Shown here: positions 31,968 to 59,265 of the stretch, in pieces
Position numbering within the stretch: the stretch's first letter is position 1
How the letters are laid out: every line of letters starts with the position of its first letter
Source: Eledone cirrhosa
Taxonomy: Eukaryota
Direction of reading: 5' to 3'
Assembly (NCBI GenBank): GCA_964016885.1
Contig: OZ024742.1
Coordinates: 104,594,001-104,658,000, forward strand
DNA: 64,000 nucleotides
The notes under the pieces: model-generated
Databases searched by the model: none
What the model saw: only the letters and a program-made list of their open reading frames with translations
What the model was told of the DNA's origin: nothing
Made by a program: the position numbers and the translations under genes

Positions 31968-32296
31968 AAGCAAAGAGATATTTAATTTGCTGCTAATTCA
32001 ACAAATTTATTTATTATAACAGATTTGAAGCACTCTACAGATTTCCTGGAGTATAATATCAATGATATTAATAAATGGAAACTATATTTATAAAACCATA
32101 TTTATTTTATTATATATATTTCAAGGGTACCAAAAAAAAATGAAACCTGAACCTATAAGGTTTGGTTTATCGGGTATACCACTATTTATAAAACAAATTT
32201 TGTATTTTATCTGATGAGAGCGTACCAAAGTTTTTTTTGGTACCCTTGAAATATATATAATAAAATAAATATAGTTTCCATTTATTAATATCATTG

Positions 32297-32300
<4 letters not shown>
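31968..32300. mobile_element. Class-A hammerhead element with inverted duplication
   Basis: 32058-32140 is the reverse complement of 32231-32299; TA tracts at both ends. Confidence 0.75.
32203..32267 (+). ncRNA. Hammerhead ribozyme, class A
   Basis: UAUUUUAU CUGAUGA GAG C GUACCAAA-loop-UUUGGUAC C CUU GAAA UAUAUA UA AUAAAAUA: 8-bp stem I. Confidence 0.88.
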
Positions 32301-32327
<27 letters not shown>

Positions 32328-32842
32328 CATATGTATGTCTGTACCAGTAGAATCTTCTCTCGTGCCTAGTTACATCATTCACGCACATTAACATTACACT
32401 GGTACATATACACTCACTCATATATTCACACATACACATATACATAAACATATATTCACACACACACACACACACACACATCATCATCATCATCACTGTA
32501 CTGGTACAGACATATGATGCATATTGATGATGATTGGTGGGTGAAGAACTGTCAGGAGTTCCAAGTAGAATGAATTTGCAGAAAAACCTAGACAGAAATG
32601 GTGTGAGCTAATCTCAGGATGTGAAACCTAACAAAGGAGAAAATGGAGTGAAGGTGGGGGAAAGATATGCTGGAGAAGACTCTTCTAAACCATGCAAACT
32701 TTGAAAGACACATAAAATTGATAATGATAATAGGTAATCCGCTGGCTGGATAGGATGGTAAATAGAGCAGTCACAATGCATAGAAAACGTGAAACTAATA
32801 AGACTTTTTGTACCTCTGTTTGTTGTCTCCTTGAACTATTTA

Positions 32843-33495
32843 TATATTGTTATATTTGGGGAGGGTCATATTGTTATAATATTGTCAGAAATAATAATAG
32901 AACACACTCACTGTTTGGTTTGGGTTTATTTTTGCTTCTGTATCTTTTATATCTCCATAGTTAATTTATCTGGCAATCAATGTTTATCATTGATTGACCA
33001 ACGGTTAAAAGTACAGATATAAACATATATATATATATAGTCTATCAATGTTCTTTCGTCACACATCTGTTACATCATTAGTGGTACTAATATGTTTCCT
33101 CCCGTTGTATCGTAATGCCAAATATAACAATATCTGTTTCAACACATGATTTCATATCAAAAACCTTGCAAAACAAACATATATGAAAAAACAACCTGTG
33201 ACAACCCCCCCCCCTCTTATTTGAAGAACTATTGTAACGCGAACTGGCGCGAAATTTATTATAATTATTGACAAACCAATCAAATTACTTTCTCGAAAAA
33301 CCTGGCATTTCGAGCCACTTTTTCCATATAAAACAAGTAACATTCAGAGACCAACCAGATGTGAGAAAAACCACAGACCCTCCATCTTTTGAAAAGCAGA
33401 AGAACTGTGAAACTGGTAAAGGAACCAAATAAATATATATATTTTAAAAAATAAGACTCCAGTTGCATTTTCGATTTCATCTCTTTTTCTTTATA
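32843..33495. mobile_element. Penelope-like family C element with internal inversion and decayed hammerhead (33044-33085, minus)
   Basis: Minus: CUAAUGA U GUAACA GAUG UGUGAC GAAA GAAC; orientation flips at about 33118 with CCAAATATAACAATAT present in both orientations. Confidence 0.7.
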
Positions 33496-33521
33496 TATAT
33501 ATATATATATATAAGCTTTCA

Positions 33522-33646
33522 CTGTATTTTTTTTACTAAAGAAATTTTTAGCCTAATAGCAGGGTTTAAAACCCTCTTTCTCCATTTCCTAAAGTGTTTT
33601 ATCAGGCTAAAATTTCTTTAGTAAAAAAAAAAACACCGAAAGCTTC
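33522..33646. repeat. Inverted repeat (about 43-bp arms) between microsatellites
   Basis: AAGCTTTC..TTTTACTAAAGAAATTTTTAGCCT / AGGCTAAAATTTCTTTAGTAAAA..GAAAGCTT. Confidence 0.75.
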
Positions 33647-33688
33647 TATTTCTATTTCAAACTTCACTCGCTGGCTATTTCAAAACAA

Positions 33689-33737
<49 letters not shown>

Positions 33738-33829
33738 AATAAAGATTCAGTGAGAATCGCATTTTCGGCGGGCAGGAATATATATATATGTATATATTAT
33801 ATATATATTATATATATATAAGTTTGTTT

Positions 33830-33867
<38 letters not shown>

Positions 33868-34122
33868 AGTTAATATAAATTAATATATGATAAACACCTA
33901 AGTGTTTGTATTGTAAAAGACGAAGTTAGCTAGAATGAAATAAACTAATTCAAATAAATATAGCTTGCCTGTATCGATTTAAAATAATAAATCAATATAC
34001 ACAAACTCATATTGGCAAATAGCCGTGGTACCTGGACAAATTTAAATTTCACGGCTCAGAAATGCTTCTTTCTTTGAGCTAATTAATTGTAAATGACTGT
34101 TTGAGTTTAAACTCTAAATATA

Positions 34123-34162
<40 letters not shown>

Positions 34163-34196
34163 TTTGTTTTGTATATATATATATATAATTATATAT

Positions 34197-34952
34197 GATC
34201 CTGGGTACACAAGAGATGTAGCGGGATAGCAGGCAAACTAACAGGAAGGGAGAAATACGTATGCAGTAGATGTACAGGGAAATTAGACAGTAGAAGTCGC
34301 ATTGATAGACACATTTTTCAAATGCAGGCGGGTGCTATAGAAGTGGTGGATAGCTTCCGGTACCTAGGAGATCAGATTAGCATGGGAGGGGGGGGGGGGT
34401 TCCGAGGCCATAGTATCTAGAATAAGGATGGGTTGGAAGAAGTTTAGGGAGCTGCTTCCTCTGTTGATGAAGAAGCGTTTCTCCCTGCGTACGAAATGCC
34501 GGTTATATGATGCCTGTGTGAGGAGCACGATGCTGCATGGTAGTGAGACATGGGCAGCAACTGCGACGGCTGGAGAGAAATGAGGCAAGCATGCTCTGTT
34601 GGATGTGCAGTGTCAATGTGCGCGAACGACCCAGCATGAATGTGTTGAGAGAGAAACTGTGTCTGAGAGGGATAGAATGTAGTGTACGAGAGAGGAGACT
34701 GAGGTGGTATGGACATGTGATGCGCATGGAGGATGACCGATGGGTGAAGAAGTGCCAGGAAATGCCAGTTGAAGGAAGACGTGGTAGAGGTAGACCACGA
34801 AAAACATGGGCGGAGGTGGTGAGAACAGACCTCAGATCATTGAAGCTCACGGTGGAGATGATGAAGGACCTTGACAAGTGGAGAGATGCTGTGTTGAATA
34901 AGACCCGTCCCACCCTTGCAAGCAGGAAAAGCGAACGTAAAATGATGATGAT
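34197..34952 (+). mobile_element. RTE family B, 5'-truncated, disrupted
   Basis: WVHKRCSGIAGKL...CSRC, FRYLGD, RRLRWYGHVMRM, GRPRKTW; very short 3' end with (ATG)n. Confidence 0.9.
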
Positions 34953-35011
34953 AATATATATATATTATTCAGAATATTAATAAATGAAGACATTCACATA
35001 ATCAAAATATA

Positions 35012-35077
35012 TGTTTTATTATATATATTTCAAAGGTACTGTGTTGTTTTTTCAGTACGTCCTCGTCAGATAAAATA
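35012..35077 (-). ncRNA. Hammerhead ribozyme, class A
   Basis: UAUUUUAU CUGACGA GGA C GUACUG-loop-CAGUAC C UUU GAAA UAUAUA UA AUAAAACA. Confidence 0.85.
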
Positions 35078-35356
35078 CAGGAATTGATGTATGACATACC
35101 TCAATGGTCTTGATGGTTCAATTCCAGTATTGGCAGTGATTTATTACAACAAATCTCAACATTTATATACCATAAATAATAACATGATAAACTTAAACTT
35201 AATGAAGAAGAGGATGTGGAGCGAGATATAGGTATAAGGAGGGGGTGAGTATGAGGATTGCAAGAAGAAAATAAATAAATACATACATACATAAATATTT
35301 AAATGCGTAAATATACGTGATAGGGAAGAAAAATACGTATATTTACGCATTTAAAT

Positions 35357-35389
35357 ATGTGTGTGTGTGTGCGCGCGTGTGTGTGTGTG

Positions 35390-35441
<52 letters not shown>

Positions 35442-35825
35442 TGTGTGTGTGTGTGTGAGAGAGAGAGTGTGTGTGTGTGTGTGTGCGTGTGTGTGTGAGT
35501 GTATGTGTGTGTGTGTGTGTGCGTGTGTGTGTGAGAGTGTATGTGTGTGTGTGTGTGTGTGTGTGAGAGTGTATGTGTGTGTGCGTGTGTGCGTGTGCGT
35601 GTATGTGTGTGAGTGTATGTGTGTGTGTGTATGTGTGTGTGTGTAGGTGTGTATGTGTGTGTGTGTGTGTGTGCGCGTGTGTGTGTGAGAGTGTATGGGT
35701 GTGCGTATGCGCGCGTGCGCGCGCGCGCGTGAGTGTATGTGTGTGTGTGTGTATGTGTGTAGGTGTGTATGTGTGTAGGTGTGTATGCATGTATTTCTGT
35801 GCTTATGTGTGCATGTGCCTGTGTT
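35357..35825. repeat. Imperfect (GT)n microsatellite
   Basis: Seen directly. Confidence 0.95.
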
Positions 35826-36054
35826 AATGTTCATGCATGTGTATGATTGTGGCGCCCGTCTGTGCGTCTTCGTTTCAACACTGTTTAAAGTAAGTGGTGA
35901 TATTTGTTTATATTCCACATAAACAACACAGTCTGCAGCTAAGCACACTTGTCAATAGATTATGAATTGGTATTAGCAGGAATATCCAACTATAGGAAAA
36001 CTGCCTCAAAAGGTGCTGCCCGACTCATGTCAGCATGGAAAAGCAGGTGTAAAA

Positions 36055-36405
36055 ACATCATCATCGTTTTTACATCCATTTTCCATGCTTGCATGGATTG
36101 GACAGATCCTCTTCAGCACAGCATCTCTCCACTTGCCATATTTCTTCATTATCTCCTCTGTGAGTCTCAGTGATTTGAGAACAGTGTTCAGCCACCTCAG
36201 CTCAGGTCTTCCTTCGTCTACTTTTACTCCAGCTTCCTTCCACTGGAATTTCTTGTCACTTATTCACCCAGTGATCATCATGCATATGCATCACATGTCC
36301 GTACCAATGCCGTCTTCTCTCTTTCACACCACTTCAGATTCCTCTTCAACCCAGTTTCTCCCTCTGATCATCCAATCTCTACCTTTCTCTTGCATTTACA
36401 CAGCA
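36055..36405 (-). mobile_element. Old RTE-B-like fragment
   Basis: Degenerate match to 58488-58850; similar remnants at 43420-43610 and 45340-45540. Confidence 0.65.
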
Positions 36406-37142
36406 CACTATATACCATATTTCCCAGAGTCGAAGACGCTACTTTTTCTCAAAAATAAGTCTCAAAAATCTACCATGCATCCTGGAGGCTGAAGGCTGTT
36501 TATTATTTTTTTTCAAATTTTTGGTTGTCAAAATTAGGGTGCGTCCTTGAGGACGAAACGTCTTTGGCACCGGCATTCAAATATAGGTTTATTCATTATT
36601 TTTTCTTACAACATAGCTATGATGTTTCAGCAAAGTGAGATGACAGTTCGCTACGCTTCTTCAGAGAAATAAGCTGATGGTTGCTTCTGGCAGGACCTGC
36701 TGGAAGGAGTGTTTGAGGACTCTGCCCCAATGACCCTCTCAAGAAGAAGAAGGAGGAGAAGAAGATGATTTACTATAAGCCCCAACATTTTGATAGGTGG
36801 TATTCTAGTATTTATATATCTATATCATGATTCATACAAATGAAACAGTTCTCGTCCTGTAGAAGTTATTTCTATATATATAATAAAGATGCCTATATTC
36901 TACCAACTTATGGAGTATCATTTTTGACTGTGGTTATTCCCCCCCCCCCCCAGCACAATTTGAGAACCTACATAGAAAGATGTATATATGGTCATAAATA
37001 AAAACATTTGATTAATTGGTTATGTTCCTAAAAATGAGAAAAATATAGATAGTTATGCTTTTTTTGCATACCTTCGGATATGACAAATGTGATGTTTACA
37101 CCAATATATATATAATAATAATATATTTGTCATTCTGGAGCA

Positions 37143-37790
37143 ACACATACACACATGTGCTGACTTGAATACACATACACATACACACATGTGCTGACTT
37201 GAATACACATACACATACACACATGTGCTGACTTGAATACACATACACATACACACATGTGCTGACTTGAATACACATACACATACACACATGTGCTGAC
37301 TTGAATACACAAACACATACACACATGTGCTGACTTGAATACACATACACATACACACATGTGCTGACTTGAATACACAAACACATACACACATGTGCTG
37401 ACTTGAATACACAAACACATACACACATGTGCTGACTTGAATACACATACACATACACACATGTGCTGACTTGAATACACATACACATACACACATGTGC
37501 TGACTTGAATACACATACACATACACACATGTGCTGACTTGAATACACATACACATACACACATGTGCTGACTTGAATACACATACACATACACACATGT
37601 GCTGACTGGAATACACAAACACATACACACATGTGCTGACTGGAGTATACAAACACATACACACATGTGCTGACTTGAATACACATACACATACACACAT
37701 GTGCTGACTGGAGTATACAAACACATACACACATGTGCTGACTTGAATACACATACACATACACACATGTGCTGACTGGAGTATACAAAC
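37143..37790. repeat. 34-bp minisatellite, about 19 copies
   Basis: Unit ACACATACACATACACACATGTGCTGACTTGAAT. Confidence 0.95.
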
Positions 37791-39438
37791 ATAAATAAAC
37801 TGAAAAAATATAACCATATCACAGGTAGCTATGTGGAAAAAACAAAATGTAAGACGTTAAGTAAACAGAGATAAGGCAAATGAAGGAGATAGTTTAGATT
37901 CCTGAAGGTAAGTGTGCCATGACCACTAGCTGGTAGAGAGAGAGAGGGAGAGAGAGAGGGGGAGAGAGAGAGGGGGGGATAGAAATATGATGAAAATTAA
38001 ATCTAGAATAATGATTCTATATAATCTTATATAGGGTTTATATGTGTAGGGTTCAGTCGGTACATTTGTCCATGGGACAGGAGAGCCAAAGAGAGACCAG
38101 GTGAATATCTGCCTCCACCACAAAAAAACAAAAAAACTCAGTCACTCAATGTCATTTTAAGAGGGGCTCTCATCCTTGAAGCTGCAGCCTAAAAGCAGAC
38201 TTGTTCTGCTCTGTAAAATATCTCTCAGAGGTGTGTTTTGGCTAGTTCTGTCTGGTATTTTGTTGTTGAGTAAGGTTGTGTAAGGAAAAATGATATATAT
38301 ATATTGTATCATGTCTCTGATATTGCGTAGACTAAGATCCCTACTGATGAAAGGTCTCTGATATGAAGGGTTTTTATATTGTGGTTAACTGGCTAATTGT
38401 ACTTTGCATTGTGTGTTTCAGCTAGTTTATACTAGTATTTTGCTGTTGGGTAGGATTGTACCATAAAAATTAGATATATGTGTATATACTCAAATATAAA
38501 CTGATCCAAATATAAGTCAAACCCCTGTTTTATGTCTGAGAAATAGGCCAGGCGGTGTGATTTCTATTATATGATAGTTTCAAAAAAAGCCCACATGGCT
38601 AAGTCTTTAGAATATAAATTCAAAATAGGGACCGCATAGGACAAAGACAATGGAAAAAAAAACAACGAAAAGACGGACAGTCCCATCTCATATATATCAT
38701 CATCACCATCATCGTTGTTTTAATGTCCACTTTCCCTGCTATACACACACATACACACACATTAACAATTTCATATGGTCATACATGCCAACATATATTT
38801 CATATTAAAAAAAAACCCAATAAATATAAAAATATGTATTCATTGCAACAGATGTAAAAGAGATAGAGTCATTTGCTTGACGTTTTGTAATGACAGGGTT
38901 TAATCAATAGTTGGTTAGCTCTGTTGATTTCAAGAACATTAGATTAATAAGTCTCTTAGCTATGACCATGAACAGAACTTGGCCCTCAGACTCAGCTTGT
39001 CAGTTTATTTTATATGATATACACTACATAACTTGTCTCGAAATACTGCCTTTCTCTAGAGAATTGACCCTTTCATTTCCATGTCTCTAATCAAAGACAC
39101 TGCCCGTGGTTTTCAAATAATTTTGAAAATCAAGAATTTTGAGGTATTTAACTCTTTCATGACCATATTTCTAAAACACTGCCTATAATAATAAAGAATT
39201 CAAAAGGATTTGGTAACATAACTAACTTTCTCATTGGGAAGCTGGTATTTAGTGCATAACAAACGTGTTTACATAAAATTCTGATGGGAGAGAACCAGGT
39301 GAGGTTTCAGGTGATTTGATATCAAAAGGTTAAATGCTCAGTGACATTTAAGCAGCAGTTGGATAGCTGTTGGACAGCAGTTGAATAACAGTTGGGGAAC
39401 AGTAGGACTATACATGTCCATTTAGTGTGTGTTTATAT

Positions 39439-39893
39439 CAGTGATTCCCAATGTAGAGTGCACACCTCACAGGGGAGCAATTTGAATATTCAAGGAGGGG
39501 ATGCAATTTGAATATGAGGGGGAGGGGGGCATTTGAAAATGATGTTAATGAGAGCAAACTTCAGGTTTTACCTTATTACTTTTACACCAAGGGAAATTTG
39601 GAACAAATTACTGTCGGAAACTCCTGTCTCACCTCCTCCACACATTATTATGTTACTTTGCCTTTCATCCTTACGGGGTCGATAAAATAAAGTACCAGTA
39701 ATGCACTGGGTAATTTGCTGGCCTTGTGCCTAAAGTAGAAACAATTATTATGTTATTGTGCATCTGGCATCACCCATACGCCAATTTGTTTACATTTTGT
39801 AGTTGATCATCGCTGTTTTTGTATCAAAGTGGGGCATAAAAATGTTTGAGATGTTCAGGTGGGGCATGGGGCACAAAAGGTTGGAAACCACTG
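39439..39893. mobile_element. hAT-type MITE with nested SINE 3' end (39655-39745)
   Basis: TIRs CAGTGATTCCCAA / TTGGAAACCACTG; TSD GTTTATAT / GTTTATGT. Confidence 0.8.
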
Positions 39894-41447
39894 GTTTATG
39901 TTGAGGGACAGGTGTACCCCTTTCCACCTCACCCTGCCCAACTTCTTGTATTTTATTTAGCCTTAAGAAAGAAGTCTTGTTTGCTGTGTTAATAGTGGTG
40001 GTGGTTGTGTTGTTGTTGATGGTGGTGATGGTCAGCAGTAGGGGGGGGGGGGGTTGATGGTGGTAGGTAGCAGTAGTGGAGGGGGGGGGGGTGATGGTGG
40101 TAGTTAGCAGTAGTGGGGGTGTTGTTGTTGATGTTGGTGGTGATGGTCAGCAGTAGAGGGGGAGGGGTGTTGATGGTGATGGTCAGCAGTAGTGGGGCTG
40201 TTGTTGTTGTTGATGTTGGTGTTAGTCAGCAGTTGTGGGGGATGTTGTTGTTATTGTTGATGGTGGTGGTTGTTGGGGTGTTGTTGTTGATGTTGGTGGT
40301 AGTTAGCAGTTGTGTGTGTGTGTGGGGGGGGGGTATTGTTGATGGTTGTAGTGGTTGCAGTGGTGGTGGTGTTGTTGTTGATGGTGGTGGTAGGGGTGGT
40401 GGGGGGGTTGATGTTGATATGGCGGTAGTGGTGGTTGGCAGTAGTGAAAGTGTTGCTATTGTTGATGTAGGTGGTTGGTAGTGTTGTTGTTATTGTTGTT
40501 GATGGTGGTGGTGGTTGGCAGTAGTGGGAGTGTTGTTGTTATTGGTTAGTGATGGTATTGTTGGTTGTGGTAGTGGTTTGATGGTTTACTGATAGTAGTT
40601 GGTGGTATATAGTGTTTACTGTTTGGATGGCTAAAAATAGATTTTTGAGTTTTTCTGGGAGGAGAAACATCTTGGAGGATTTTAATTGAGAAGTTTGAAG
40701 TGATGATGGCAGAGATAGTGTGTTGTTTGTATATGACTGGGAGGTTGGTGCTGATTAATTTGGTGCTGTTTTAACATCAAGTAAGTCCTGGTTAAGCAGA
40801 CGTGTGATCAACGGCATTACAATCATGGCTAACTCATTTTTAAAAAGGTACTCTGCACCCTGACTATATTATTCAGTATGTTCTTTTTTAACCTTTTCAT
40901 TACCATATTTCTAATGAAGCATAAGGTGTATGATTTTTAAATCATCCTGAAAATAATCAAGAATTTGGAGGGATTTAATAAAATATCTTTCTCATTATTA
41001 AGCTGATGTTTGGAGCATAACTTAACAAAAGCTCATATACAATATCATGATAGGTTTTTAGATAAATATAAACACTTTAAAATAATTTTATATCGTAGAA
41101 CCACAGACAGATTAAGACCTTTTGAGGCTTCAGGCATTTAAAAAACTATGGTGTCTTCTCTTCTTATCTATATATAATGTTTGCAAAAATAAACTTATTT
41201 TGGAATGCCAATTACATTTAATTTGATTAAAATGGTGTCCTTCTTTCTTTGATGTCCCAAGTATAGGCTTATTTTGCTTAATGGTTAATATAGCCCTGCA
41301 TAAAAGCAGGGGTTAAGATGCTAGGGTAGGATTTGAAAGAGATTTGGTTATTTCTACTGAGTTAAAGAACCACATGGAATATTTTTCATTGACTCACTTG
41401 GTAGTGGTGGCAGTGTGTGTGTTAAGGTTGTAATATTAGTAAATGAA

Positions 41448-41665
41448 AGGGTGGTAGATTGGCAGAATTGGTAGTGTTGGATAAAATGTCATTGCAGTAT
41501 TTATTCTGGTCTTTTAAATTCTGAGTTCAATTCCTGCCAAGGTCAACTTTACCTTTCATCCTTCCAGGGTCAATAAAATAAAATACCAGTTAAGTACTGG
41601 GGTTGATTTAATCAACTTTGCCCTTCCCTCAAATGTAATGGCCTTGTGTCTAAATTAGAAACAAA
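41448..41665 (+). mobile_element. SINE family 1, full length
   Basis: GGTGGTAGATTGGCAGAAT...GAGTTCAATTCC...CCTTTCATCCTT...GCCTTGTGTCTAAATTAGAAAC. Confidence 0.8.
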
Positions 41666-44600: not shown

Positions 44601-44834
44601 AGTGGAAGGAACCAAAACATCTACAGAGTTATTTCACTATCTGATGAGACATTGACTCCTGCATTTGGAGACAGAGTACGGCAGCACCCTAAGTACACAA
44701 GTATCTTTACTAACTATCTGGTATTCAATATTTTCATTTGTTATTAGCCTCCTTTTAGTGGACTTTGATTTAGCTGTACTATATGCCCCTTGGTAAATTT
44801 GACACTGTAAAATCTCTATGGTGCCCCTCTTCTC

Positions 44835-45218: not shown

Positions 45219-46644
45219 TGCCCTAAGCATGAGTATATTTTGCTTTATGGTTAATCAAGCCTTGTCTCATCACTTTTTGGCCATCACACACAGCTTATTT
45301 TTCATGAGCCACTACAGGATATGTACCAACACACCATACACTGCTCATACACCTCATGGATACAACATCAAAACTCTGATATATGAATCATACATATTTA
45401 TTGGTTAGTGTTTGTCCTCCATCTCCCTACCATACAACGCCAATCTTTTGGTCATGCCAAACATCATCCAACCTCTCCAATTACAACACATCATCCATCT
45501 GACTTGTCTTTTTGCCTTCATGTCATTACATTGTCATATTTCTAACACATGTATCATATTTATTGGCTACTGTGTGAGTGTAAGAGAGAGATAGAGAGAG
45601 AGATATAGAGAGCGAGACAGAGAGAGAGACAGTGAGAGAGCATAGAGAGAGAGAGTGGGAGAGACAGTGCATATATATATATATACACAAAGAGAGAGAG
45701 AGAGAGACAGATAGGCATAGAGGGCAGTATATATATGTTCTTAATTGCCGACAAAGATACTTGTTAGACACCATGCTGTCATAGGATAGAATACCTCTGG
45801 CCTTGCCCCTTCACAGCATTATTTTAGTTACCCAGGGAACAAAAGGTATATGCTGAAACCAAGGAACCAGAACCAGAATCCATAAGAGTTAGATCAAAGC
45901 TGTTTACAATATTAATGATACCCACCACCACCACTACTGCCACAACCACCAGCACCACCATCACCACCACCACCACCACCACAACTACCACCATGAACAT
46001 CACCACCGCAACCAACACTGCCACCACCATTATCACCACCACCACACCACCACCACCACCATTAACACCACCACCACATCCGCTACCTCCCCACCGCCAC
46101 CACAACCATCACCACCACAAGTATTGTCCTCTTTTGACATCTAATTTGGCAACATATTTATGTCAAGACTTCCGTTTGTCTCACTGTCTCACTCTATATA
46201 AACATCTCAAGTTCAGAAGACTGTAATTATCATTTCATATAATAGAAATGGCCAGTACTCAGGTGGTAAGGAATCACCATTGTCTATATATTTGGTCGCT
46301 TGGTGAACAGAATAAACTGAATTCTATTTAGTAGTAAGCCAAAAGTATGGAGCAAGCTACTGAGAACCCATTGACCTATGGTGTGGCCCTCTTTAGATTT
46401 TCCCATTCAGTTCTATTTACTATAATTACAACAACAGTGCCCTTGAGAAATTAAGGTCTCTGATTTGATAGGGTTGCTAGAGCGTTGGATATTTGTTCCG
46501 GGTCTCTGCATTCTTAGTTCAAATCCTGCTGAGGTTCACTTTACTTTTCATCCTTTTGAAGTCAATAAAGAAAGAACAAGATCTGTGTTGGTGCAACCCT
46601 CCCTCATCCCAGCTTTGTCACATCCCGGATCAAGGGGTGATGGT

Positions 46645-47083
46645 TTAACCCTTCAGCATTTAAACCGGCCGCATCCAGCCAGAATATTCTCGGCTCTTTC
46701 TGTACAAACTGACTGTAACTGGCTGCTCATACTTATGTTAAGGTATTGTTCTCAAAATAAATAATTGTTTCTACTTTAGGCACAAGGCCAGCAATCACCC
46801 AGTGCATTACTGATACTTTATTTTATCGACCCCCTAAGGATGAAAGGCAAAGTCAACCTCGGCGGGATTTGAACTCAGATCGTAAAGGGACGTAACTATG
46901 CTGGAAAGTATGGCGTCCGACCCTCTACTGATACTGCCAATCCATCGCCAAAATAAATAATATCAAAATAAATAATATCAAAATTTCATAGATTCGATAT
47001 TATGTGAGATAATTATGTAAGGTAAAGCCTTTACCGTGAAAAAACAATAGTATATATAGAGTAATATAAATGCTAAAGGGTTA
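46645..47083. mobile_element. piggyBac-like MITE family 1 with nested SINE family 1 (46765-46948, minus)
   Basis: TTAACCCTTCAGCATTTA / TAAATGCTAAAGGGTTAA; SINE TSD CAAAATAAATAAT. Confidence 0.85.
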
Positions 47084-47479
47084 AGAGAGTGTCTGTTTAC
47101 AACTGCATGAGCACCTAAAACACTTAGTGAAAGTATAGTACATATTATTAAGACACTTGTGAGTGATTGCTGTAATTGTTAAGCCCATGAGAAATGCATT
47201 AAAATCAGAACATTCCATCAAATTTATCCCTGATCATTTCAGATTTCATAGCAATCCAAATTATAAGGAAGAAAAAGCATGATAAATGCCACCATAATCC
47301 GTAAAGATTTATAAAGCTTAATTTCAGATTCACTGATAGTAAGCAATTTAGAAATATATGTCTCCCATGTAAAGCTAACAGCTAACATACCTAATAGATA
47401 TGTATCTATACCTATATAACATAATTATATATATATACAATATATTAACAAATGGAAACTATATTTATAAAACCATATT

Positions 47480-47545
47480 TATTTTATTATACATATTTCA
47501 AAGGCCACCAAGGCAGATTATGGTGCGCTTTCATCAGATAAAATA
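47480..47545 (-). ncRNA. Hammerhead ribozyme, class A
   Basis: UAUUUUAU CUGAUGA AAG C G CACCA-loop-UGGUG GC C UUU GAAA UAUGUA UA AUAAAAUA; flanks match 32065-32125. Confidence 0.85.
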
Positions 47546-47647
47546 TAATACAGATTAGTTTTATAAATAAATATTAACATACCCTGAAAAAATGCAACCT
47601 TAACAGTTGGAGCTTCCTGGATAGTATATATATATATATATATATAG

Positions 47648-47715
<68 letters not shown>

Positions 47716-47826
47716 CAGTTCCCCGTAGGACTAACAATACACCCAGGAGCTGGACATATCGATGAATTGACAGAGTGGAATACATTTCAACACCATGTTT
47801 ACCTGTTCTTTCTACATTAATTTGTA

Positions 47827-47883
47827 CTGCCTGAAGAGGTCACAGCCAATAATAGCTGTCACTGAAATATATATATATAGCAG
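47827..47883 (+). ncRNA. Hammerhead ribozyme, class-A architecture in an unrelated 220-bp TA-flanked element (47713-47935)
   Basis: CUGC CUGAAGA GGU C ACAGC CAAUAAUA GCUGU C ACU GAAA (UA)5 UA GCAG; AATAAA about 10 nt downstream. Confidence 0.82.
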
Positions 47884-50800
47884 AGAATTTATAATAAATG
47901 AAGCCAAATTTAACATGTTTGACTTACTTATTTTATATATATATATATATATACATATATATATAATTTAGTATCCTTCTCAGATACACAATAAAATGCC
48001 TGTAGTCATTTCCGTCACCAGTCTTAGATGTTCAGGTGGAGTGGGGGGTTCAGATTCTTCTGGGTGGTCATTCTCTCACAAGGGACATATTTCAGAATGT
48101 TTTAATTTTTTTTATAAACTATTTTATAAATCTGAGGGTGCTCTATTAAAACGTGTGTGTGTATAGGATGGGGGACAGAGCCTTCATCCCTTCACCTGGC
48201 AGTAGTTATCAGCCACTTGTCTAATTATGCAACTTCTTGGCAATATTGCCGCTACTAATATCTATATTAAAGTAGGCTGCTGGGAGTTCATAGAGTTCTC
48301 ATGCTTTAAAGTTCTGGCTGAGCTTCAAATCACTGATGCAGCAAAGAGGAGGGAAGAGGCACATATATTCCATCACTGATATCATGGGGGGAAAACCACT
48401 AGAGGTTTTTGCATAAAGAGGGCAGGCCCATGGTTTGTTGTTTTTGGGATGTAAGCCAAGACATGATCAACCCCAGCTGGATCAAAGGAGCAAGGGGATT
48501 ATATGTTGAAAGACCCATTAAGCAAAGTAGGCACATACTTAGAGCATCAAAGGAAGAGGGGCAACAATTTATTCAAATTAAATGTATCATTCCAAAAGAA
48601 TTTGTCTTGCAGACTTTATATAAGAGGAACATCATAATCTTTTAAGTGCTTAAGGACTTAATCTGGCCTCCCTCTCTATCCTATATTGTCTTCTTTGTTT
48701 CAAGACAAGCATGACTAAATTTTAAGAAAAACAACATTACTTATGTATTTAAGCTAAATGTGGACACGGTTACAAAGCTTTGACATTTCAGAACACATAA
48801 AGCAAAACTAGAACACTGAATTTATCATGTAAGTATTAAGCATCATATTCATAGTGGAAATAGAATGGCACAGGTGGAATTCAAGCCATTCTAAGGGAAA
48901 TTAACAAAATATATGCTGTGATATGGTGACTTTGACCAAATAACAGAATTGGCTCTGATATTGTCTTCCTGAGAGCTCACTGAAACATATGATAATGAAC
49001 AGCTCAAAATTCTCAGGTAAAACTTAAATCATTAGCAGTGCTGGCTAACAATGTAAAATGTAATAAATTGTAAAATAATTATCAAAGAATAAAGAAAAAC
49101 AAAGCTCAGAATAAAATTTAAAAGTCTATTTCAAAACTAAAAAGAGTGTACGTAATATTTTTTATAAACAACCAATCCATTAAACTAAGAATATATTGTT
49201 TTTTATCGGAGTGAAAGAAACGTTTTCAGATAAAGCAGACATTTCTAGAATATTTTGTAACTCTAATCTCACTTAGCCACCACAAAATGTCTTAGAATTT
49301 GATGAAATTCTTTCCCTGATGATTCAACATGCAAAAAAAAAAAAAAAAAAGACAGTTCACACCTATGTAGGTTTAGCTGGCCTCCTACAAGATTGAATTT
49401 TGGAAAAATAAGGAAAAAACAAAAACAAAAACAAAAAAAAGCGACAAAACGAGAAGAATTTGTAATATATTATGATAATATTTATAATTTAACTTTAACT
49501 TTCTCATTATAAAACTAGTGTTTAGAACATAACTTAAAGGCTCTTACATAAAATTATGACAGAAGCTTTTTAGATAAATACAAGCACTTTATAAAATGTT
49601 TTTGTATCATCTGATTCCCCACTCACCCTAAAAAAATTAAAACCCTTGGTTTTGAGAGGAAAGCTGAGTGTTGTGTAAGGGTGGCGGAAGGGACATACTC
49701 ATCATCATGATAAGCAACAACCTATTACAGTCACCACTGGTAGTTCACCTTATCAAAGTATCAGGTGATGCCCGTGTGGGTGCTTGTTAGTTCCAGCCCA
49801 TCACTGTCACCTACAGTAAAGATGAAAACGTATTGGCTAGCCTAAAATAAATATTAGAATGCAGCTCCGGCACCCCTTGTGGTGTGTAACCGATTGATAC
49901 ACATTACTTTCGTTTTGATTTTATAGTTTTAGAATTAGTGTGCTATTAAAAAATGAATACAATATTAAATTAATAAAAGAAAAAACAAGAATATATTAAT
50001 CACCTAAATATAAATAATTTAATTATATCATTATATTATAAACTGGAGTTGCTTAAATGAAAAATGAATGGATAAAAATGTAAAAACAACAGAAAATGCA
50101 GTAAAGTTTACACAGAAAGAGATCTGGTTCAAGGGAGATAATTCTGCATTAAAAATTATATTTTCATACTAGCTTATGTTTTGGAGTAGGTAAATTCCTT
50201 GATGTAAGCTCAGTGGACACCAGTTTTATGTATGTGGAGAATATCACAGGCCACAATGTTTCACCTATACAGCTCATTCTAATCCTTTTAATACTAAACC
50301 CATGATATTATTTTAGAATTTTTTGTTAAGTAATGTTCTAAATATCACCTTAAATGAAAAATTTAGTTATTTTATTAAATTCCTCCAAATGTTGGTTATT
50401 TTTGTATGAATTGAAACATATGGGAAGTGTATTTTATTAGAAATTAAAAATGGGTAGTGTTCTCTGTAGCACTGCCAAACTAATGACTTGGTAGACATTT
50501 TCTACAAAAGTTTGGCTTGAAATTTACTTACAAATGATATTACAGTTCACCTTTGTCAACATTCAAACTTTTCCTAAGAATCATCATCATCATTATTTTA
50601 TGTCTATTTTCCATGTTAGCATGGTTAAGACAGGTTAACATTTTCTGAAACTAGACTGGTCAAGTGACCACATCTGGCATGGATTCAATGGCTGGATGCC
50701 CTTCCTAATCACCAGCACTACCACTTTACAGAGTGAGCTGGGTGCATCATGGCACTATAATTACTTCCTTACAAGAGGGTGCTCATTACTCACTTTATGT

Positions 50801-51404
50801 AGCCATCTAAGGTTAGGATGAAAGGCATTTGAATACACATAACAACACCATGTATACATATACATCTACATACTTAAAACTAAACATATCCACACTGAAC
50901 TACATACATTTATAGTTAATTCCGTACAGGTACACACACTCACATATATATACTTACACACTATCATAACTCAACATCCATTTTTCATGCCAGCAAGTGT
51001 TGAATGTGTTGTCACAGAGCAAATAAATATTCAATCAGTGCTACTAAACTCTCAGACGGGGTGACTGTTGCATCTCATTTACATTCGTTTCTACACTCTA
51101 CACAGTGTACTGGGTTCATTTTATCGTGTCATCAGCACTAGGGAGGTTGTCATATCTTAGACACAACTGAAGAGTCCTCTTATCTTTCATGGCTTCTACA
51201 GCTGGATGTCCTTTGTATTACCAGCCTTACAGTGTGTATTGGGAGCATCTTTTTGTGGTACCAGCACTAAAGTGGTTATTGTGACATAACTAAAGAATCC
51301 TCTCACCATTTTTAGCATGGTTTATATGGCTGGAAGACCTTCCTAAAACCACCTACCTTACAGATCATCTACCAGGTGTGTTTTATTGTGGCACCAGCAA
51401 TAAT

Positions 51405-51450
<46 letters not shown>

Positions 51451-51624
51451 ATATATTTACTCACATGTACATACATAAGTATGTACCTACATACATACTT
51501 ATATACTTACTCATATATACATACATATACACACACATAAATAACTATAGCCATGGACAGATTATTCATTCTGAAACATTCTAATAATTTATTTTTCAAT
51601 ATATATATATATATATATATATAT

Positions 51625-51702
51625 ATCATCATCATCATCATTTTACGTCCGCTTTTCCCTGCTTGCAAGGGTGGGACGGGTCTTATTCAGCACAGCATCT
51701 CT

Positions 51703-51705
<3 letters not shown>
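51625..51705 (-). mobile_element. 80-bp 3' tip of RTE family B
   Basis: Near-identical to 58495-58575; embedded in (TA)n. Confidence 0.85.
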
Positions 51706-51753
<48 letters not shown>

Positions 51754-52004
51754 TATACAAAGAGCAAAAAATGACAATAACAAAAACAACTCTAAAAATA
51801 TTTCCTCCCCCTCCTCCTCCTCCTCCTCCACAACCACTGCTTCCCCCTCCTTTGTAGTTATAATAGGAACATATAAAAGTAAATAGATAAATATGAAAAA
51901 TCTAACATTAATACCACAGGCAGATGTTTGTGATATTACAAAATGTTTTGATACAATAATTTTATTATGATGAAATTATTTCTATATTGTTCTGCACTAT
52001 TTAG

Positions 52005-53137
52005 TAAACATCCATTGTTGAGTATATGTGAGTATCTGGTGTGTTTAACATCCAGTGTTGTGTATATATGTGTATCTGGTGTGTTAAACATCCAGTGTTG
52101 TGTATATATATGTATCTGGTGTGTTAAACATCTATTGTTGTGTATATATGTGTATCTGGTGTGTTAAACATCCAGTGTGGTGTATATGTGAGTATCTGGT
52201 GTGTTAAACATCTATTGTTGTGTATATATGTGTATCTGGTGTGTTAAACATCCAGTGTGGTGTATATGTGAGTATCTGGTGTGTTAAACATCTATTGTTG
52301 TGTATATATGTGTATCTGGTGTGTTAAACATCCAGTGTGGTGTATATGTGAGTATCTGGTGTGTTAAACATCCAGTGTTGTGTATATGTGAGTATCTGGT
52401 GTGTTAAACATCCATTGTGGTGTATATGTGAGTATCTGGTGTGTTAAACATCTATTGTTGTGTATATATGTGTATCTGGTGTGTTAAACATCCAGTGTGG
52501 TGTATATGTGAGTATCTGGTGTGTTAAACATCCATTGTTGTGTATATGTGAGTATCTGGTGTGTTAAACATCCAGTGTTGTGTATATGTGAGTATCTGGT
52601 GTGTTAAACATCCAGTGTTGTGTATATATGTGTATCTGGTGTGTTAAACATCCAGTGTTGTGTATATGTGAGTATCTGGTGTGTTAAACATCCATTGTTG
52701 TGTATATATGTGTATCTGGTGTGTTAAACATCCAGTGTGGTGTATATGTGTGTATCTGGTGTGTTAAACATCCAGTGTGGTGTATATATATGTATCTGGT
52801 GTGTTAAACATCCAGTGTTGTGTATATATGTGAGTATCTGGTGTGTTAAACATCCAGTGTTGTGTATATGTGTGTATCTGGTGTGTTAAACATCCAGTGT
52901 TGTGTATATGTGAGTATCTGGTGTGTGGTGTATGTGTGAGTATCTGGTGTGTGGTGTATGTGTGAGTATCTGGAGTATGGTGTATGTGTGAGTATCTGGA
53001 GCGTGGTGTATATGTGAGTATCTGGTGTGTGGTGTATGTGTGAGTATCTGGTATGTGGTGTGGTTCATGTGTGAGCATCTGGAGTGTGGTGTATGTGTGA
53101 GTATCAGTGTGGTGTATGTGTAAGTATCTGGTGTGTT
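52005..53137. repeat. 40-bp minisatellite switching to a 26-bp derivative
   Basis: TATCTGGTGTGTTAAACATCCAGTGTTGTGTATATGTGAG to about 52914, then TATCTGGTGTGTGGTGTATGTGTGAG. Confidence 0.95.
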
Positions 53138-56100
53138 GACCCAATATTAGAAAGTATTATCATTATTGTCATTAGGGCAATGAATTTATGGAATTACTAG
53201 AGCATTGGGCATAATACTTTGTAGCATTTAGTTAGTTCTATGTTCAAACCCCACCAAGGTCAGCTTTGCACTTCACTCTTCATAAAATAAAGTATAAGTA
53301 AAGTATTAGTGTCGATATAATCAACTTTCCCCTCTCCCCAGAGGGTGGTAGATTAGCAGTATTGATAGAGCAACAAACCAAATGCATTGAAGTATTTAGT
53401 TATGACTTTCTACATTGTGAGATCAAATCCTGTTGAGGTCAACTTTGTCATTCATCCTTCTGGGGTCGATAAAATAAAGTACTAGTCAAGCATACTCGAA
53501 TATAAGCTGATCCAAATATAAGTCGACACTTTTTATTTTATGTCTGAGAAATGGACAAAAATGCAAACCACATTTATAAACCGAGGCAGCTAATCAACAC
53601 ATTATGTTTAGATGAAGAATATAAGCCAACACCCCCATTTTACCATTGATTTTTTGGTCACATATTCCTCGGTTTATATTTAAGTATATATGGTACCAGT
53701 TAAGTACTGGAGTTGTTATAATCGACTTTCTCCTCCTCACAATATTACAAGTCATTATTAGTGGATTGGCAGAATCGGTAGAGGTACCAGTCACACAGTG
53801 ATTTAATCGACTTTCTCCTCTCCTTCAAATTGCTGGCCTTGTGCCTAAATCAGAAACCATTATTATTGTCATTATTGTCACTCTGCAATTCATTTCTTTA
53901 ATCACAGGAGACAAACTAACAAAAGAAAATATTCAAAAGTGACATCAATGTTGTAACATAATTTAATAATCTATTCAGGTAGATAATTAGACAGACAGGT
54001 GAAATTAAAACTCCTTATTCATATAGGAAGGAATTGGACCTAGATTTTATTAGTCCCTTTTTTTAAATATTAAAAAAAAATTGCTGAACTATTAAACTCA
54101 GTTTTACAGTGCTATCATTGCTTGCAACAGTGAAGGGAAACACCATGTAAGATCTATATTGAAGTTGAATGGATTATACAGAGACGACCACTGTTGACTT
54201 GGCCAATCAAACACTGACTCTTAGAATATTGAATTTTGATTGGTTGATTCATCCATATACAGTTCATTAGAGAGGGGGAGAGCGAGGGAGAGAGAGAGAG
54301 AGTGTGTGTGTGTGATATTCACTTTGTGGAAATTGATATTGTAAAAATAAGAACAAATATGTTTATTTCATAAAGGAATTCATTTCATAAAGGAATTTGA
54401 AGCTGATCGAATTTTGCAATTTATAAGGAATGGCATAACATTATTTTGTCATTTGAATATTTGATGACAACTACTATAAAAAGGATGCCTCACTCACACA
54501 CCCTCTCTCTCTCTCCCCCATGAAACACATATGGATGAATTGACTAGACATAAATCATCATTTAGCATTTTTTGACATTCAAGCAACTTGGTCTTTTAAA
54601 TTTCTTCCTAGTATGAATTGGTTGGTGACAACTAAAAGCAGAGTTTATCTATTTTCAAGCTGGCAAATTGCTGGGAAAATAAAATGCAAAAAACAATGAT
54701 GCCCTTATCCACAAATTAAAAAATGTACTAGAAGAAGATAACTGGACAACAGCAAAAAAATAATTGTTTCTACTTTTGGCACAAGGCCAGCAATTACCCA
54801 GTGCATTACTGGTACTGGACAACAGCAAAAAAAAATAATTATGAGATAATGCAGGTTTCTCATTTTGGCACAAGGCCAACAAATTTGGGGGAAGGTAAAG
54901 TTAATTAAACCAACCCCAGTACTTGACCGTTACTTTATTGTATCAACCCCAGAAGGATACAAGACAAAGTTGACCATGGTGAGATTTGAACTAAGAATGT
55001 GAAGAGCCAGAACAAATAGTGCAATAGCATTTTATCCACCATTCTACCAGTTCTGCCAATCCACCACCATTGTCAGTAAATAAGTCAGTAACAATCACTT
55101 TCTTGCCAAAATTCAAGTGGTGCCTGTTGACTCATTCTCTGACGAAACTGCATAACAGGGCAACAGCATCTAGGTCACTCTAAACTTGCACAGTTATGAA
55201 GGGTTAATGATTTAGAAGGTAAAATATCTGTTTACTTTTATCTTCTGTTCACTGAACATATTATGATGGCAACTTTGGGTATCTTTGTTAAATATTTACA
55301 TTATAAATCTTGTTAGCACATCTTTCTCACTTCTCTACACCGCTTTCTCCACTGCCATCATCATTACCATCATTATTATAGTAAATGTTGTGTTGCCATA
55401 AAGTGAAAGTAATTTCTCTCCCCACTCCACTTCCATCTCCACTTCACCATGTATATGTATATATGTATATATATATATACACACACACACACACATATAC
55501 AAAGTGTTCCCCCAAAATGTGTACACACTTCAACAGCATTCTAATAAATATGTATATACATTTTTTTGTGGCACCCTGTATATATATACATACACACTGC
55601 AATCTTCACATACTGACTAACTGAAAGGTTTGTTTGTATTTGTCCAAGCCTACTGAGAAACAGAATAGTTTGCTTGAAGAGAAGACTTTTACCAAAAGTG
55701 GCCAGATGTTTCTCAGAAATTTTTTTTATGAAATAATCATATCTTGTACAGATTAGCCTACATAGAAGGATTTTTTTTTGCATTTCGTTTCCTGTTTAGA
55801 GGTGCTTGTGTTTGGGGCGGAATTTTAAATTACCTTAGCACTGCAGTGGGTGTAATATAAGGTAAATATCCTCAGGAATGGCAAGGGAAGGCTTAGATCC
55901 AGTTTCAATCACCCATTAACTCTTTCATTATCATATTTCTTATGAAAGACACTATCTATAAATAATTGAGAATTTATAACTAACATGCTCGTTATTAAAC
56001 TGGTGGTTGGAACATAATTTAAAAGTTCTTACTTCAAATGTGAATAAATGAAGTTCAGTGGAGACTTCTGGTGTCCTTGGCCCTAGGGCTACCTCCCTAC

Positions 56101-56504
56101 TCATCACCATTGACTCAGAGCTGGCTACCCACAGGTGTGAGTCTTGCAAGCTGGAATGGCCCTTCCAGCACATCTCCCTCACCATCCTCCAGGGAAACGT
56201 CTTTTCTATTCTGTCCGCCAGGGCCATAGGGCGGCCAGTGCATGGGCCCCCAATAGTGAAAGATGGGGAGAATGGGAAGAAAGGAGGCAGTGACAGTGGG
56301 AGTTTGGTTCCTTTGTGTTCGGACCTGGTGTATATGTATATGTCTCATGGACACACACTCACATTAAATTATGATGAAAGACTATGATTTTCAAATAAAT
56401 TTTGAAAATAATCAAGAAAGATTTAGTAATATAATTAACTATTAAAAAGTTGGTGTTTTGAAAATAACTTAAGAAAGGATCTTGCAGAAAATGGATGTGT
56501 GTAT

Positions 56505-57310
56505 ATCATCATCATCATCATCCTCATCATCATTTAACATCCATCTCCACGCTAGCATCGGTTAGACGGGATTGTCCCACTTGAGGCAAGATTGGTCGGG
56601 TGATCATGTCTCGCTCATATAGAACTGTACCTGGCAGATTTTCTACAGCTGGATGCCCTTCCTAACACCAACCACATTTACAGTGCGGACTGGGAGCCTT
56701 TTTACCGTGTCTCCTACACCAGTGCTTCTCAAACTATCTGATGTGGCGGACAGGCATTTTTTTTTTCAAAGTGCCACGTACCGCTAATATTTCGTAGTAA
56801 TATTAATTTATACCGGAAACGATATATATAATGAATATAATAAAAGTTGACCATTTTTTTATCTTCTATTTATTTTGTAAACAAATAATACAATATCAAA
56901 ACATATAAAAAAGTAATAAAAAAAATAACAAGCAGTTTATTAACACAAAACTAAAAATTATATAACCTTAATCTTTACTAGTGTGAAAGGCCGCGTACCG
57001 GTAGCTGATGGTTCGTGTACCGGCACCAGTCCGCGGACCACCACTTTGAGTAGTACTGTCCTACATGACCTCATTACGGCGTGGACTGGGTGCTTTTTGT
57101 CATGACACCTACACAACCACTTTACAGTGTGGATTGGATGTTCTGTGGTACCAACATACCTTTACAGAGAAAGGGTGGTATGAGTGGAAGTGGGAGGATG
57201 AAGTAGGGGTAGTGGGGTGGGAGTATATTTGGTTAAGAGGTGCCTACTGACTGTAGGTTTAACTTCGTACGTAAGGTAAAGTGGGTCTTCCGTATTACTG
57301 CGTAGCACCA
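56505..57310 (-). mobile_element. RTE family A 3' end interrupted by a hAT MITE
   Basis: Matches 6470-6911 in reverse; CAT tail at 56507-56532. Confidence 0.8.
56720..57058. mobile_element. hAT-type MITE
   Basis: TIRs CAGTGCTTCTCAAA / TTTGAGTAGTACTG; TSD TCCTACAC / TCCTACAT. Confidence 0.85.
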
Positions 57311-57330
57311 TATATACTTATATATATATA

Positions 57331-57512
57331 GGAAAATGTTTGACCCCGACGGCAGAGCTCAAACCGTTTCGACGGCTATTTCTGGACTGTTGAAACGGCT
57401 TGAGCTCTGCCGTCGGGGACAAACATTTTCCTATTACCCACTCTACTAGCCTAAGTATTGAGTACTCTGGTGCGTTATGGTCCATCTGGTTCCTTACTAC
57501 ACCTCCTTCTTT
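57331..57512. mobile_element. Short TA-flanked element with 40-bp inverted arms
   Basis: 57331-57370 versus 57392-57431; each arm starts GAAACGG(C/T)TTGAGCTC, a possible hammerhead 3' half. Confidence 0.6.
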
Positions 57513-57531
57513 ATATATATATATATATGTA

Positions 57532-58236
57532 TATAATAATAATAATAATGAAATTATTGTGTAACTGCTCAGGTGCACTACAACTCGTCAAAGGTGCATG
57601 TATAGTACATAGAATAATATACAAATGTCATGGAAATGAATAGTATATGTGTCATGATATACATGTGTGTATGTGTATGGAGGGGGAACATTAGGTGTAG
57701 TGTTGGCGAATCTCGGGAAACATGGAGATTTTAAAGGATGCAGTGTCTCGACAGCTAACAACTGATGCAGGTAGTTTGTTCCATGCTTCAGCAACTCTGA
57801 GCGTGAAAAAATGTTTCCGAAAGTCATGGGAGCTGTGCTGTTTTCTGACTTTGTGGGCATGTCCACGTGTGTTAGACACATGGAAATCAAAAAGGTACTC
57901 AGGGTTGTTGTTGGCAAGATGGTTAACAATTTTGTGGGTGATTACCAAGTCAGTTGCCAGACGTCGGAGCTTCAATGTATCCATGCCCAGGGAAGCAAGG
58001 CGTTCAGAGTATGGTAGATGCCTGATGGAGGGTATTCGCTTGGTTGCACGTCTCTGAATAGTTTCCAGGCGGTCAATGTTCTGAGCAAGATAGGGGTTCC
58101 AGACTGGTGATGCAAATTCTAAGTGTGGCCGCACCATAGCCATGTACAGCCTTAAATAGAAAGCTGGAGAGCGGCTGACAAAGGTCTTGCTGGGTGATGC
58201 TAAGACACCCTCGGCCCTCTTGACAATTTTAGGATC
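57532..58236 (-). mobile_element. CR1-clade LINE, 5'-truncated
   Basis: LYMAMVRPHLEFASPVWNPY..DRLETIQRRATK..YSERLASLGM..TRGH..FFTLRVAEAWNKLP; (ATT)n tail. Confidence 0.92.
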
Positions 58237-58453
58237 CATATACACCAAATTTGACTGGAAGGATGACAGGAAGGATCTATTTGTACACCATGCTTTTACT
58301 CTTCCTACAGAGCCAAAATGGCCTATATACAGAATAAGATCTCCCAGATACACAACATAGACACCAGCATGGAAGAATTCTCACCTAAAAAAACTACTCA
58401 ACTTCTCCCACGAAACTTAAGTACCTGTATATGTCACTGTTGTAACTAATTGA

Positions 58454-58487
<34 letters not shown>

Positions 58488-58488
<1 letters not shown>

Positions 58489-59093
58489 TCATCATCATCA
58501 TCATCATCATTTTACGTCCGCTTTTCCCTGCTTGCAAGGGTGGGACGGGTCTTATTCAGCACAGCTTCTCTCCACTCGTCACGGTCCCTCGTCATCTCCA
58601 CCGTGAGCTTCAATGATCTGAGGTCTGTTCTCACCACCTCCGCCCATGTTTTTCGTGGTCTACCTCTACCACGTCTTCCTTCAACTGGCAATTTCTGGCA
58701 CTTCTTCACCCATCGGTCATCCTCCATGCGCATCACATGTCCATACCACCTCAGTCTCCTCTCCCGTACACTACATTCTATCCCTCTCAGACACAGTTTC
58801 TCTCTCAACACATTTATGCTGGGTCGTTCACGCACATTTACACTGCACATCCAACGGAGCATGCTTGCCTCATTTCTCTCCAGTCGTCGCATATCCTCTG
58901 CAGTTGCTGCCCATGTCTCACTACCATGCAGCATCGCGCTCCTCACACAGGCATCATACAACCGGCCTTTCATACGCAGGGAGAAACCCTTCTTCATCAA
59001 CAGAGGAAGCAGCTCCCTAAACTCCTTCCAACCTGTCCTTATTCTAGATAATATGGCCTCGGAACACCCTCCTCCCATGCTAATCTGATCTCA
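58488..59093 (-). mobile_element. RTE family B, 5'-truncated, open frame
   Basis: 188-aa ORF GGGCSEAILSRIRTGWKEFRELLPLL...GRPRKTW; (ATG)n tail; microsatellite flanks. Confidence 0.92.
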
Positions 59094-59116
59094 TATATAT
59101 ACATACATACATATGC

Positions 59117-59171
<55 letters not shown>

Positions 59172-59210
59172 TACAAATATTAATAAAATAGATGTTCTTT
59201 TGATCAATTA

Positions 59211-59265
59211 CATTTTATTATACATATTTCGGAGGTACAACAGTACGTCCTCATCAGACAAAATA
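59211..59265 (-). ncRNA. Hammerhead ribozyme, class A
   Basis: UAUUUUGU CUGAUGA GGA C GUAC UGUU GUAC C UCC GAAA UAUGUA UA AUAAAAUG. Confidence 0.9.

Follow-up and report, generated by a model that had tools for sequence, protein, structure and literature searches.

Five type I hammerhead motifs with a C-C mismatch in stem II lie in a 64,000-nucleotide stretch of the Eledone cirrhosa genome (Eukaryota; assembly GCA_964016885.1, contig OZ024742.1, positions 104,594,001 to 104,658,000 of the forward strand), hereafter the window. It is almost certain that they are hammerheads borne by the repeats of Penelope-like elements. Judging from their sequence, they apparently form an abundant, undescribed variant of the hammerhead of Hydra-clade Penelope elements, and not a new class. 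Our overall reading, to which we give a probability of roughly 0.55, is that these terminal-repeat hammerheads would cut only as dimers, and that the unpaired cytosine is a selected contact that keeps cutting conditional.

Hammerhead motifs of the window

All five motifs were present where an earlier note on this DNA had placed them, with CUGANGA and GAAA cores at 32211 (+), 35069 (-), 47537 (-), 47831 (+) and 59257 (-). Each has the three basal stem II pairs listed in that note, then C opposite C, then an upper helix. The triplet is AUA in every case, and stem I measures 4-12 bp. Scanning the window with the pattern CUGANGA, stem II, GAAA, NUH, stem I returned six candidates, five of them with three basal pairs followed by C-C. 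Block-wise dinucleotide shuffling of the window, done 100 times, never produced a C-C hammerhead, and loose hammerhead matches averaged 0.21 per shuffle. A covariance model was made from 33 representatives, the five window copies among them, and scored these copies at 59-79 bits. It also matched a half copy at 32103-32195 (-). Searched with this model, built partly from window copies, the window had no sixth complete copy. No Rfam hammerhead family matched at E≤5 in the window, nor at E≤10 in two short stretches holding 3 of the 5 copies.

32203..32267, + strand: hammerhead 1; core 32211-32217, stem II 32218-32247, C32221 opposite C32244, stem III palindrome 32251-32258, predicted cut after A32259; 79 bits
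35012..35077, - strand: hammerhead 2; core 35069-35063, C35059 opposite C35035, predicted cut after A35020; 73 bits
47480..47545, - strand: hammerhead 3; core 47537-47531, C47527 opposite C47503, stem III AUAUGUAU, predicted cut after A47488; 70 bits
47823..47887, + strand: hammerhead 4; core 47831-47837, C47841 opposite C47860, stem III grown to 12 nt (8 nt is the family norm), predicted cut after A47879; 59 bits
59207..59269, - strand: hammerhead 5; core 59257-59251, C59247 opposite C59234, stem I of 12 bp, predicted cut after A59219; 66 bits

The UUU of the 47480 copy is likely a private decay, since other copies of its family read CUU; this copy also has a bulge in its upper helix. The 47827 copy had been said to share no flanks with the others. 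The copy itself stops before its tail, but in full members of its family the ACUCC..GAGUGC tail motif and the spacing of the ends are common to the other families too.

An unpaired position conserved in stem II

The 33 representatives were hand-picked and are related. In their structure alignment, the fourth stem II position (columns 19/53) was unpaired in all 33, with C-C in 26, C-U in 4, C-A in 2 and U-C in 1. The left base was C in 32/33, and the right partner of this constant C was C, U (one family) or A (one subfamily). Both-side changes were found in 13 of the 17 tested pairs, including 4/4 pairs of stem I and 7/9 positions of stem II. The covariation score was 0.62, against 0.31 for shuffled and at most 0.14 for slid controls, the shuffle control overstating significance because the representatives are related and hand-picked. 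The third stem II pair exists in four types, the fifth alternates between A-U and G-C, and pair 10.1-11.1 is G-U in 13 representatives, A-U in 12, G-C in 7 and A-C in 1. The pairs flanking the mismatch truly covary, as had been claimed. The catalytic bases CUGANGA and GAAA and the NUH triplet were invariant in 33/33 representatives and 5/5 window copies, and position N7 of the core was more variable than the unpaired C of stem II. The 3-bp register without extra base suits all families. A register with an extra base ahead of stem II was discarded, as it suits only some AGG-type copies and is not general.

Across the 3.0-Gb genome, the C-C pattern had 72,313 matches versus 22 in the control, which upholds the conservation of C-C among genome-wide copies. 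Patterns with a left base other than C had 10,191 matches (control 1,921), and those with left C and a right base other than C had 6,174 (control 132), C-C making up 72,313 of 88,678 pattern matches (82%). Among the rest are antisense matches to the coding sequence of the element itself and hammerheads of other families; one abundant candidate family without C-C proved to be this antisense and not a ribozyme. When the stem III palindrome was required, C-C forms numbered 69,853, C-G forms 354 (0.5%) and G-C forms 543 (0.8%, some out of register). The two pair-restoring changes were about equal in rarity to the catalytic knockout C3G (258 matches, 0.4%). No expanded pair-closed subfamily was seen, the 100 listed matches of each paired form being scattered across all families. 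Covarying flanking pairs, a fourth position that stays unpaired, the rarity of pair-restoring forms and persistence in lineages with distant endonucleases (40-48% identity) make the mismatch look selected, in agreement with the earlier proposal, and we are fairly confident that it is under selection.

Stem I length and bulge position vary between families, and neither the terminal loop nor the stem I bulge is conserved. U2.3 of stem I was kept in 32/33 representatives, with A or G as partner, and by our count is U in 18/26 published Hydra rows. It may be a second base-specific constraint.

A palindromic stem III that would pair between copies

Stem III, from A15.1 to U16.1, is an 8-nt palindrome (12 nt at 47827), and was 8 nt long in 166 of 170 motifs fetched with a script that required an even palindrome. 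In the 33 representatives, the palindrome centre is UA (15), UG (11) or CG (6), and the next pair AU (31) or GC (2). The centre pairs are impossible within one strand. The monomer stem III hairpin was computed at +4.7 kcal/mol, versus -2.2 to -10.5 for duplexes. A centre that covaries and a duplex favoured over the monomer hairpin bear out the suggested pairing between copies. This covariation is direct comparative support for the predicted dimer, already proposed in print, and we regard it as very probable that the motifs act as such.

Two other proposals on stem III were not sustained. It is not a TA repeat as such, non-repeat palindromes (AUACGUAU, AUGCGCAU) being also present, and it does not appear built to tolerate slippage, TA-expanded forms numbering only 1,178 versus 69,853 (1.7%). 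Their rarity is consistent with slippage after insertion, so that the (UA)5 at 47827 is likely decay. One copy with a tandemly doubled hammerhead was found (L172:520-600). Elsewhere, three identical motifs ~5 kb apart (G000:C1:153246949-153256705) may be tandem elements able to dimerise in cis.

Carrier elements

A Penelope-like origin, already put forward in the earlier note, was supported by motif-linked open reading frames (ORFs) with reverse transcriptase (RT) and GIY-YIG-type endonuclease, and by pseudo-long terminal repeats (pseudo-LTRs). Many genome matches form outward-facing pairs, and the longer pairs enclose a GIY-YIG-type endonuclease. A single ORF (RT plus C-terminal GIY-YIG-type endonuclease), pseudo-LTRs and an inverted truncated copy were found in L078, L094, L128, L130 and L131. 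Near-complete elements have an RT-endonuclease ORF of 743 aa, with the motif ~230 nt upstream and again 1-2 kb downstream, behind a long 3' untranslated region, and measure 3.5-4.2 kb motif-to-motif. The order in L094 is inverted arm, repeat, ORF, repeat, (TA)n. By eye, the L078 ORF has RWR (RWK in most aligned relatives), DKT, a CxCX5C linker, CxxC..CxH around E and N, and no CCHH. Compared with section 11 of PMC8557442, these motifs and the (TA)n target confirmed the predicted protein as Hydra clade, and a Neptune clade reading was dropped. Pfam gave no significant match on four partial ORFs. The best named ORF homolog was an argonaut one (39%).

Most genomic copies are short 5'-truncated ends that span the cut site, often as inverted pairs in (TA)n. 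In a non-random sample of 163 fetched copies, 68 met their first downstream (TA)n 40-59 nt past the predicted cut, 54 met it at 120-159 nt and 23 elsewhere, and 18 had none. The stretch between the two end points holds an ACUCC..GAGUGC motif in most families checked, that of 47827 included. By analogy, the two end points match the tail and internal start sites of PMC11167929. In two sequencing runs whose kind is not given, read depth was piled on the repeat, an observation that carries no information about cutting.

The endonuclease of L065 was tried as the ORF of the 47827 family and rejected, the motif being absent from 8/8 longer copies of that ORF. Other Hydra-type families (L058-L060, L120, L122-L123, L182) have hammerheads of different forms, with a 4-bp stem II base, an extra base or other palindromes; L113-L119 showed none of their own within 7 kb.

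The window copies are truncated ends that finish in (TA)n, and no ORF remnant of the elements was found within the window:

31965..32137 (approximate ends), - strand: inverted 5'-truncated second arm of the same insertion as hammerhead 1; hammerhead 3' half and long tail, (TA)n at end
32138..32297 (approximate ends), + strand: terminal-repeat fragment with hammerhead 1; (TA)n end ~37 nt past the predicted cut
34962..35203, - strand: truncated element end with hammerhead 2; belongs to the GGA-C-GUAC group, in which related copies follow a Hydra-type ORF at ~2 kb
47430..47625 (approximate ends), - strand: truncated element end with hammerhead 3; (TA)n flanking both sides
47713..47935 (approximate ends), + strand: truncated element end with hammerhead 4
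59165..59315 (approximate ends), - strand: terminal-repeat fragment with hammerhead 5; (TA)n end ~52 nt past the predicted cut
59316..59417, + strand: inverted second arm of the same insertion as hammerhead 5; long tail, (TA)n at end

Longer copies of the hammerhead 4 family have their own Hydra-type endonuclease ~1.35 kb upstream. At 47430-47935, two truncated ends of different families lie head to head over a (TA)n tract. Several copies of each of these families begin at one short motif, ~85 or 115-120 nt before the core, which would be either a truncation hotspot or a transcription start.

Lineages carrying the mismatch

Three C-C lineages could be tied to ORFs, namely AGG (L078), GGA (L181, L184, L186) and GGU (L226 and others). 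Window copies 2 and 5 are of GGA type and copy 4 of GGU type; copies 1 and 3 come from families whose flanks are shared with the AGG type, their link to an ORF being indirect. The endonucleases of the three lineages, all of which keep the mismatch, are 40-48% identical, that of the C-U family being 46-50% identical to them. RT segments are 53-64% identical to L078, and those of families without mismatch 50-52%. Trees were made with proteins from the same genome and search matches, and the L054 row was left out of the endonuclease tree as a mislabelled neighbouring element. The RT tree joins the AGG and GGA types (95/99). The GGU type is placed ambiguously in both trees, in the RT tree among families without C-C. 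As it has no firm place, a single origin of the mismatch is not demonstrated.

Comparison with known systems

The earlier note spoke of a distinct hammerhead class. This could not be maintained, as the motifs share their core, topology, palindromic stem III and genomic setting with the Hydra-clade hammerheads published in PMC8557442 (Craig et al. 2021). In its File S2, which includes the octopus Hydra-1_Obim, the hammerheads have the same type I arrangement, core and palindromic stem III, mostly lack an extra base ahead of stem II, lie near the element end and go with a (TA)n target; the ORFs share RW[KR], DKT, CxCX5C and CxxC..CxH. In contrast, C-C at the fourth stem II position occurs in 0/26 published Hydra rows, where most stems II are short closed helices capped by a small loop. 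The stem III of these rows measures 9-10 nt versus 8 nt here, and the elements are given as 'generally <3 kb', versus 3.5-4.2 kb motif-to-motif here. No description of a stem II C-C variant was found in the literature searched, Lunse 2017 lying outside it and possibly describing one.

The minimal hammerheads (min-HHR) of Cervera and de la Pena (2014, PMC4209133) are similar in their pseudo-LTR site, thousands of dispersed truncated copies, long stem II and palindromic 15.2-16.2 / stem III region. For them, dimer cleavage with low activity has been proposed. They differ in having an extra base between 9 and 10.1, absent here, and almost no stem III (8 nt here); G10.1-C11.1 is found in only 7/33 of our representatives. 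By eye, three pairs followed by C-C occur in 0/56 rows of Fig S3 of that paper.

The anole Poseidon element PAc (PMC11167929) also has a ribozyme followed downstream by two internal 3' end points, which mark out a tail, together with an AT-rich target and copies made from uncut RNA. It belongs to another clade, however; its ORF begins inside the ribozyme, versus ~230 nt downstream here, and its tail is 30-40 bp, versus ~90 nt here. The PAc hammerhead works only with the protein of its element, and the main template there is uncut RNA (PMC11167929). Animal non-LTR retrozymes (PMC7229834; bioRxiv 10.64898/2026.07.22.740005) likewise have type I hammerheads with a weak palindromic stem III that cleave as dimers, and those of axolotl have a U-U mismatch at the helix II base. 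Retrozymes are tandem non-coding repeats, whereas the copies here are single and dispersed, or inverted pairs, from ORF-bearing elements. Metagenome and viral contigs, which are not animal genomes and are little informative, gave 0/66 pattern matches with proper stems and no Penelope protein nearby.

A proposed role for the unpaired cytosine and its alternatives

An 8-nt palindromic stem III would be too weak for a stable hairpin alone, so two motifs would pair through it, these being the two repeats of one transcript or belonging to two RNAs. Because the 3-bp base of stem II is weak, the active fold would need help. The unpaired C would be placed where ordinary hammerheads begin loop 2, and either stem I or the protein of the element would most likely recognise it base-specifically. 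The bulk of the RNA would remain uncut and become the reverse-transcription template, and a fraction would be cut. Whether the C makes a base-specific contact is, in our estimate, slightly below an even bet. It is constant on the left in AT-rich repeats, while its partner varies between C, U and A without ever being a fixed G, an asymmetry that favours a contact over a pure brake. The C-C variant may derive from an ancestral C that became unpaired and is still paired with G in relatives, an idea based on our count of 16/26 published Hydra rows with a C here paired to G. A bolder version, in which the unpaired C would replace the loop 2 contact and dock the element's protein, making a protein-switched, dimer-gated, lineage-specific hammerhead subtype, seems doubtful.

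Several observations weigh against the overall reading. The AUACGCAU variant of stem III (4/170) pairs poorly as a dimer, and no invariant partner for the unpaired C was found in stem I. A C-to-A subfamily and a C-to-U family have expanded, and other Hydra-type families of the same genome spread without any mismatch. The shuffle control, as said, flatters the covariation score. The uncertain place of the GGU type also counts here, as the C could have been kept for less time if families exchanged their terminal repeats. Finally, cleavage by PAc is dispensable for insertion in vitro (PMC11167929).

Three alternatives were considered. The mismatch could be a pure brake, merely weakening stem II so that the template RNA mostly escapes cutting until it has been copied, base identity being irrelevant. 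Closing the C-C pair in silico indeed stabilised the isolated stem II by 1.6-6.4 kcal/mol (8/8 sequences) and raised basal pairing, which was near zero in 2/8 natural sequences; besides, 10.1-11.1 is rarely G-C, all copies span the cut site, and C-U and C-A forms spread too. We nevertheless think a brake unlikely, since all families seen have C on the left and none has a fixed mismatch with A, U or G there, despite AT mutation pressure, and since other Penelope hammerheads, with long perfect stems II, still transpose (PMC4209133). More improbable is an inherited accident, where one ancestor's mismatch persists and few master copies, together with repeat exchange, left little chance of change. 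Dead copies mutate at this position at the background rate, so copy counts alone are no proof of selection; the trees leave single versus multiple origin undecided, and mismatch-free families exist in the same genome. Yet no neighbouring pair has stayed the same, and several vary on both sides, taking 3-4 pair types, whereas the fourth position never pairs, and core N7 varies more than the unpaired C.

The motif might also no longer be a ribozyme, and serve as a protein-binding repeat hairpin that positions reverse transcription ~50 and 140-150 nt downstream. Motif-to-3'-end spacings are alike in all families, no RNA-seq reads end at the cut site of the PMC11167929 element, and Rfam hammerhead models give no match. 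We give this very little weight, because an invariant catalytic core and NUH triplet and a covarying palindrome are both hard to explain without cleavage. The reading we retain is a conditional, dimer-dependent hammerhead with a selected unpaired C.

Other features of the window

A different hammerhead-like motif lies at 36602-36669 (-), where the covariance model matched 36599-36672 with 26 bits; its stem II has a 4-bp base and is loose above it, its stem III (18 nt) is largely palindromic and its stem I has 5 bp. Two ordinary Cervera-type minimal hammerheads lie at 24755-24800 (+) and 29715-29765 (-), with an extra base before stem II, a tiny stem III and a GUC site, the second having a stem II mismatch. 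RT ORF fragments of non-LTR retrotransposons, putatively RTE-like and CR1-like, occur at 24937-26319 (+), 58512-59090 (-), 34522-34980 (+), 6005-6406 (+) and 57691-58380 (-). Rfam detected tRNA-like stretches at 31687-31744 (-, 38.6 bits) and 5958-6015 (-, 25.4 bits), probably heads of a short interspersed repeat.

Significance

Hammerheads are nearly universal in Penelope-like elements; their activity in vitro is weak, and insertion does without them in the one reconstituted system. Rfam misses ~70,000 hammerhead-like motifs in this one genome. They amount to a set of natural mutants, in which C-C, C-U and C-A forms occur along with several palindromes and with elements that are young and near-intact, and their single invariant non-core base offers a simple entry point for asking what the hammerhead does. 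If the bolder, protein-switched version were true, a ribozyme that decides whether RNA is cut or copied would have spread to ~70,000 sites of one animal genome.

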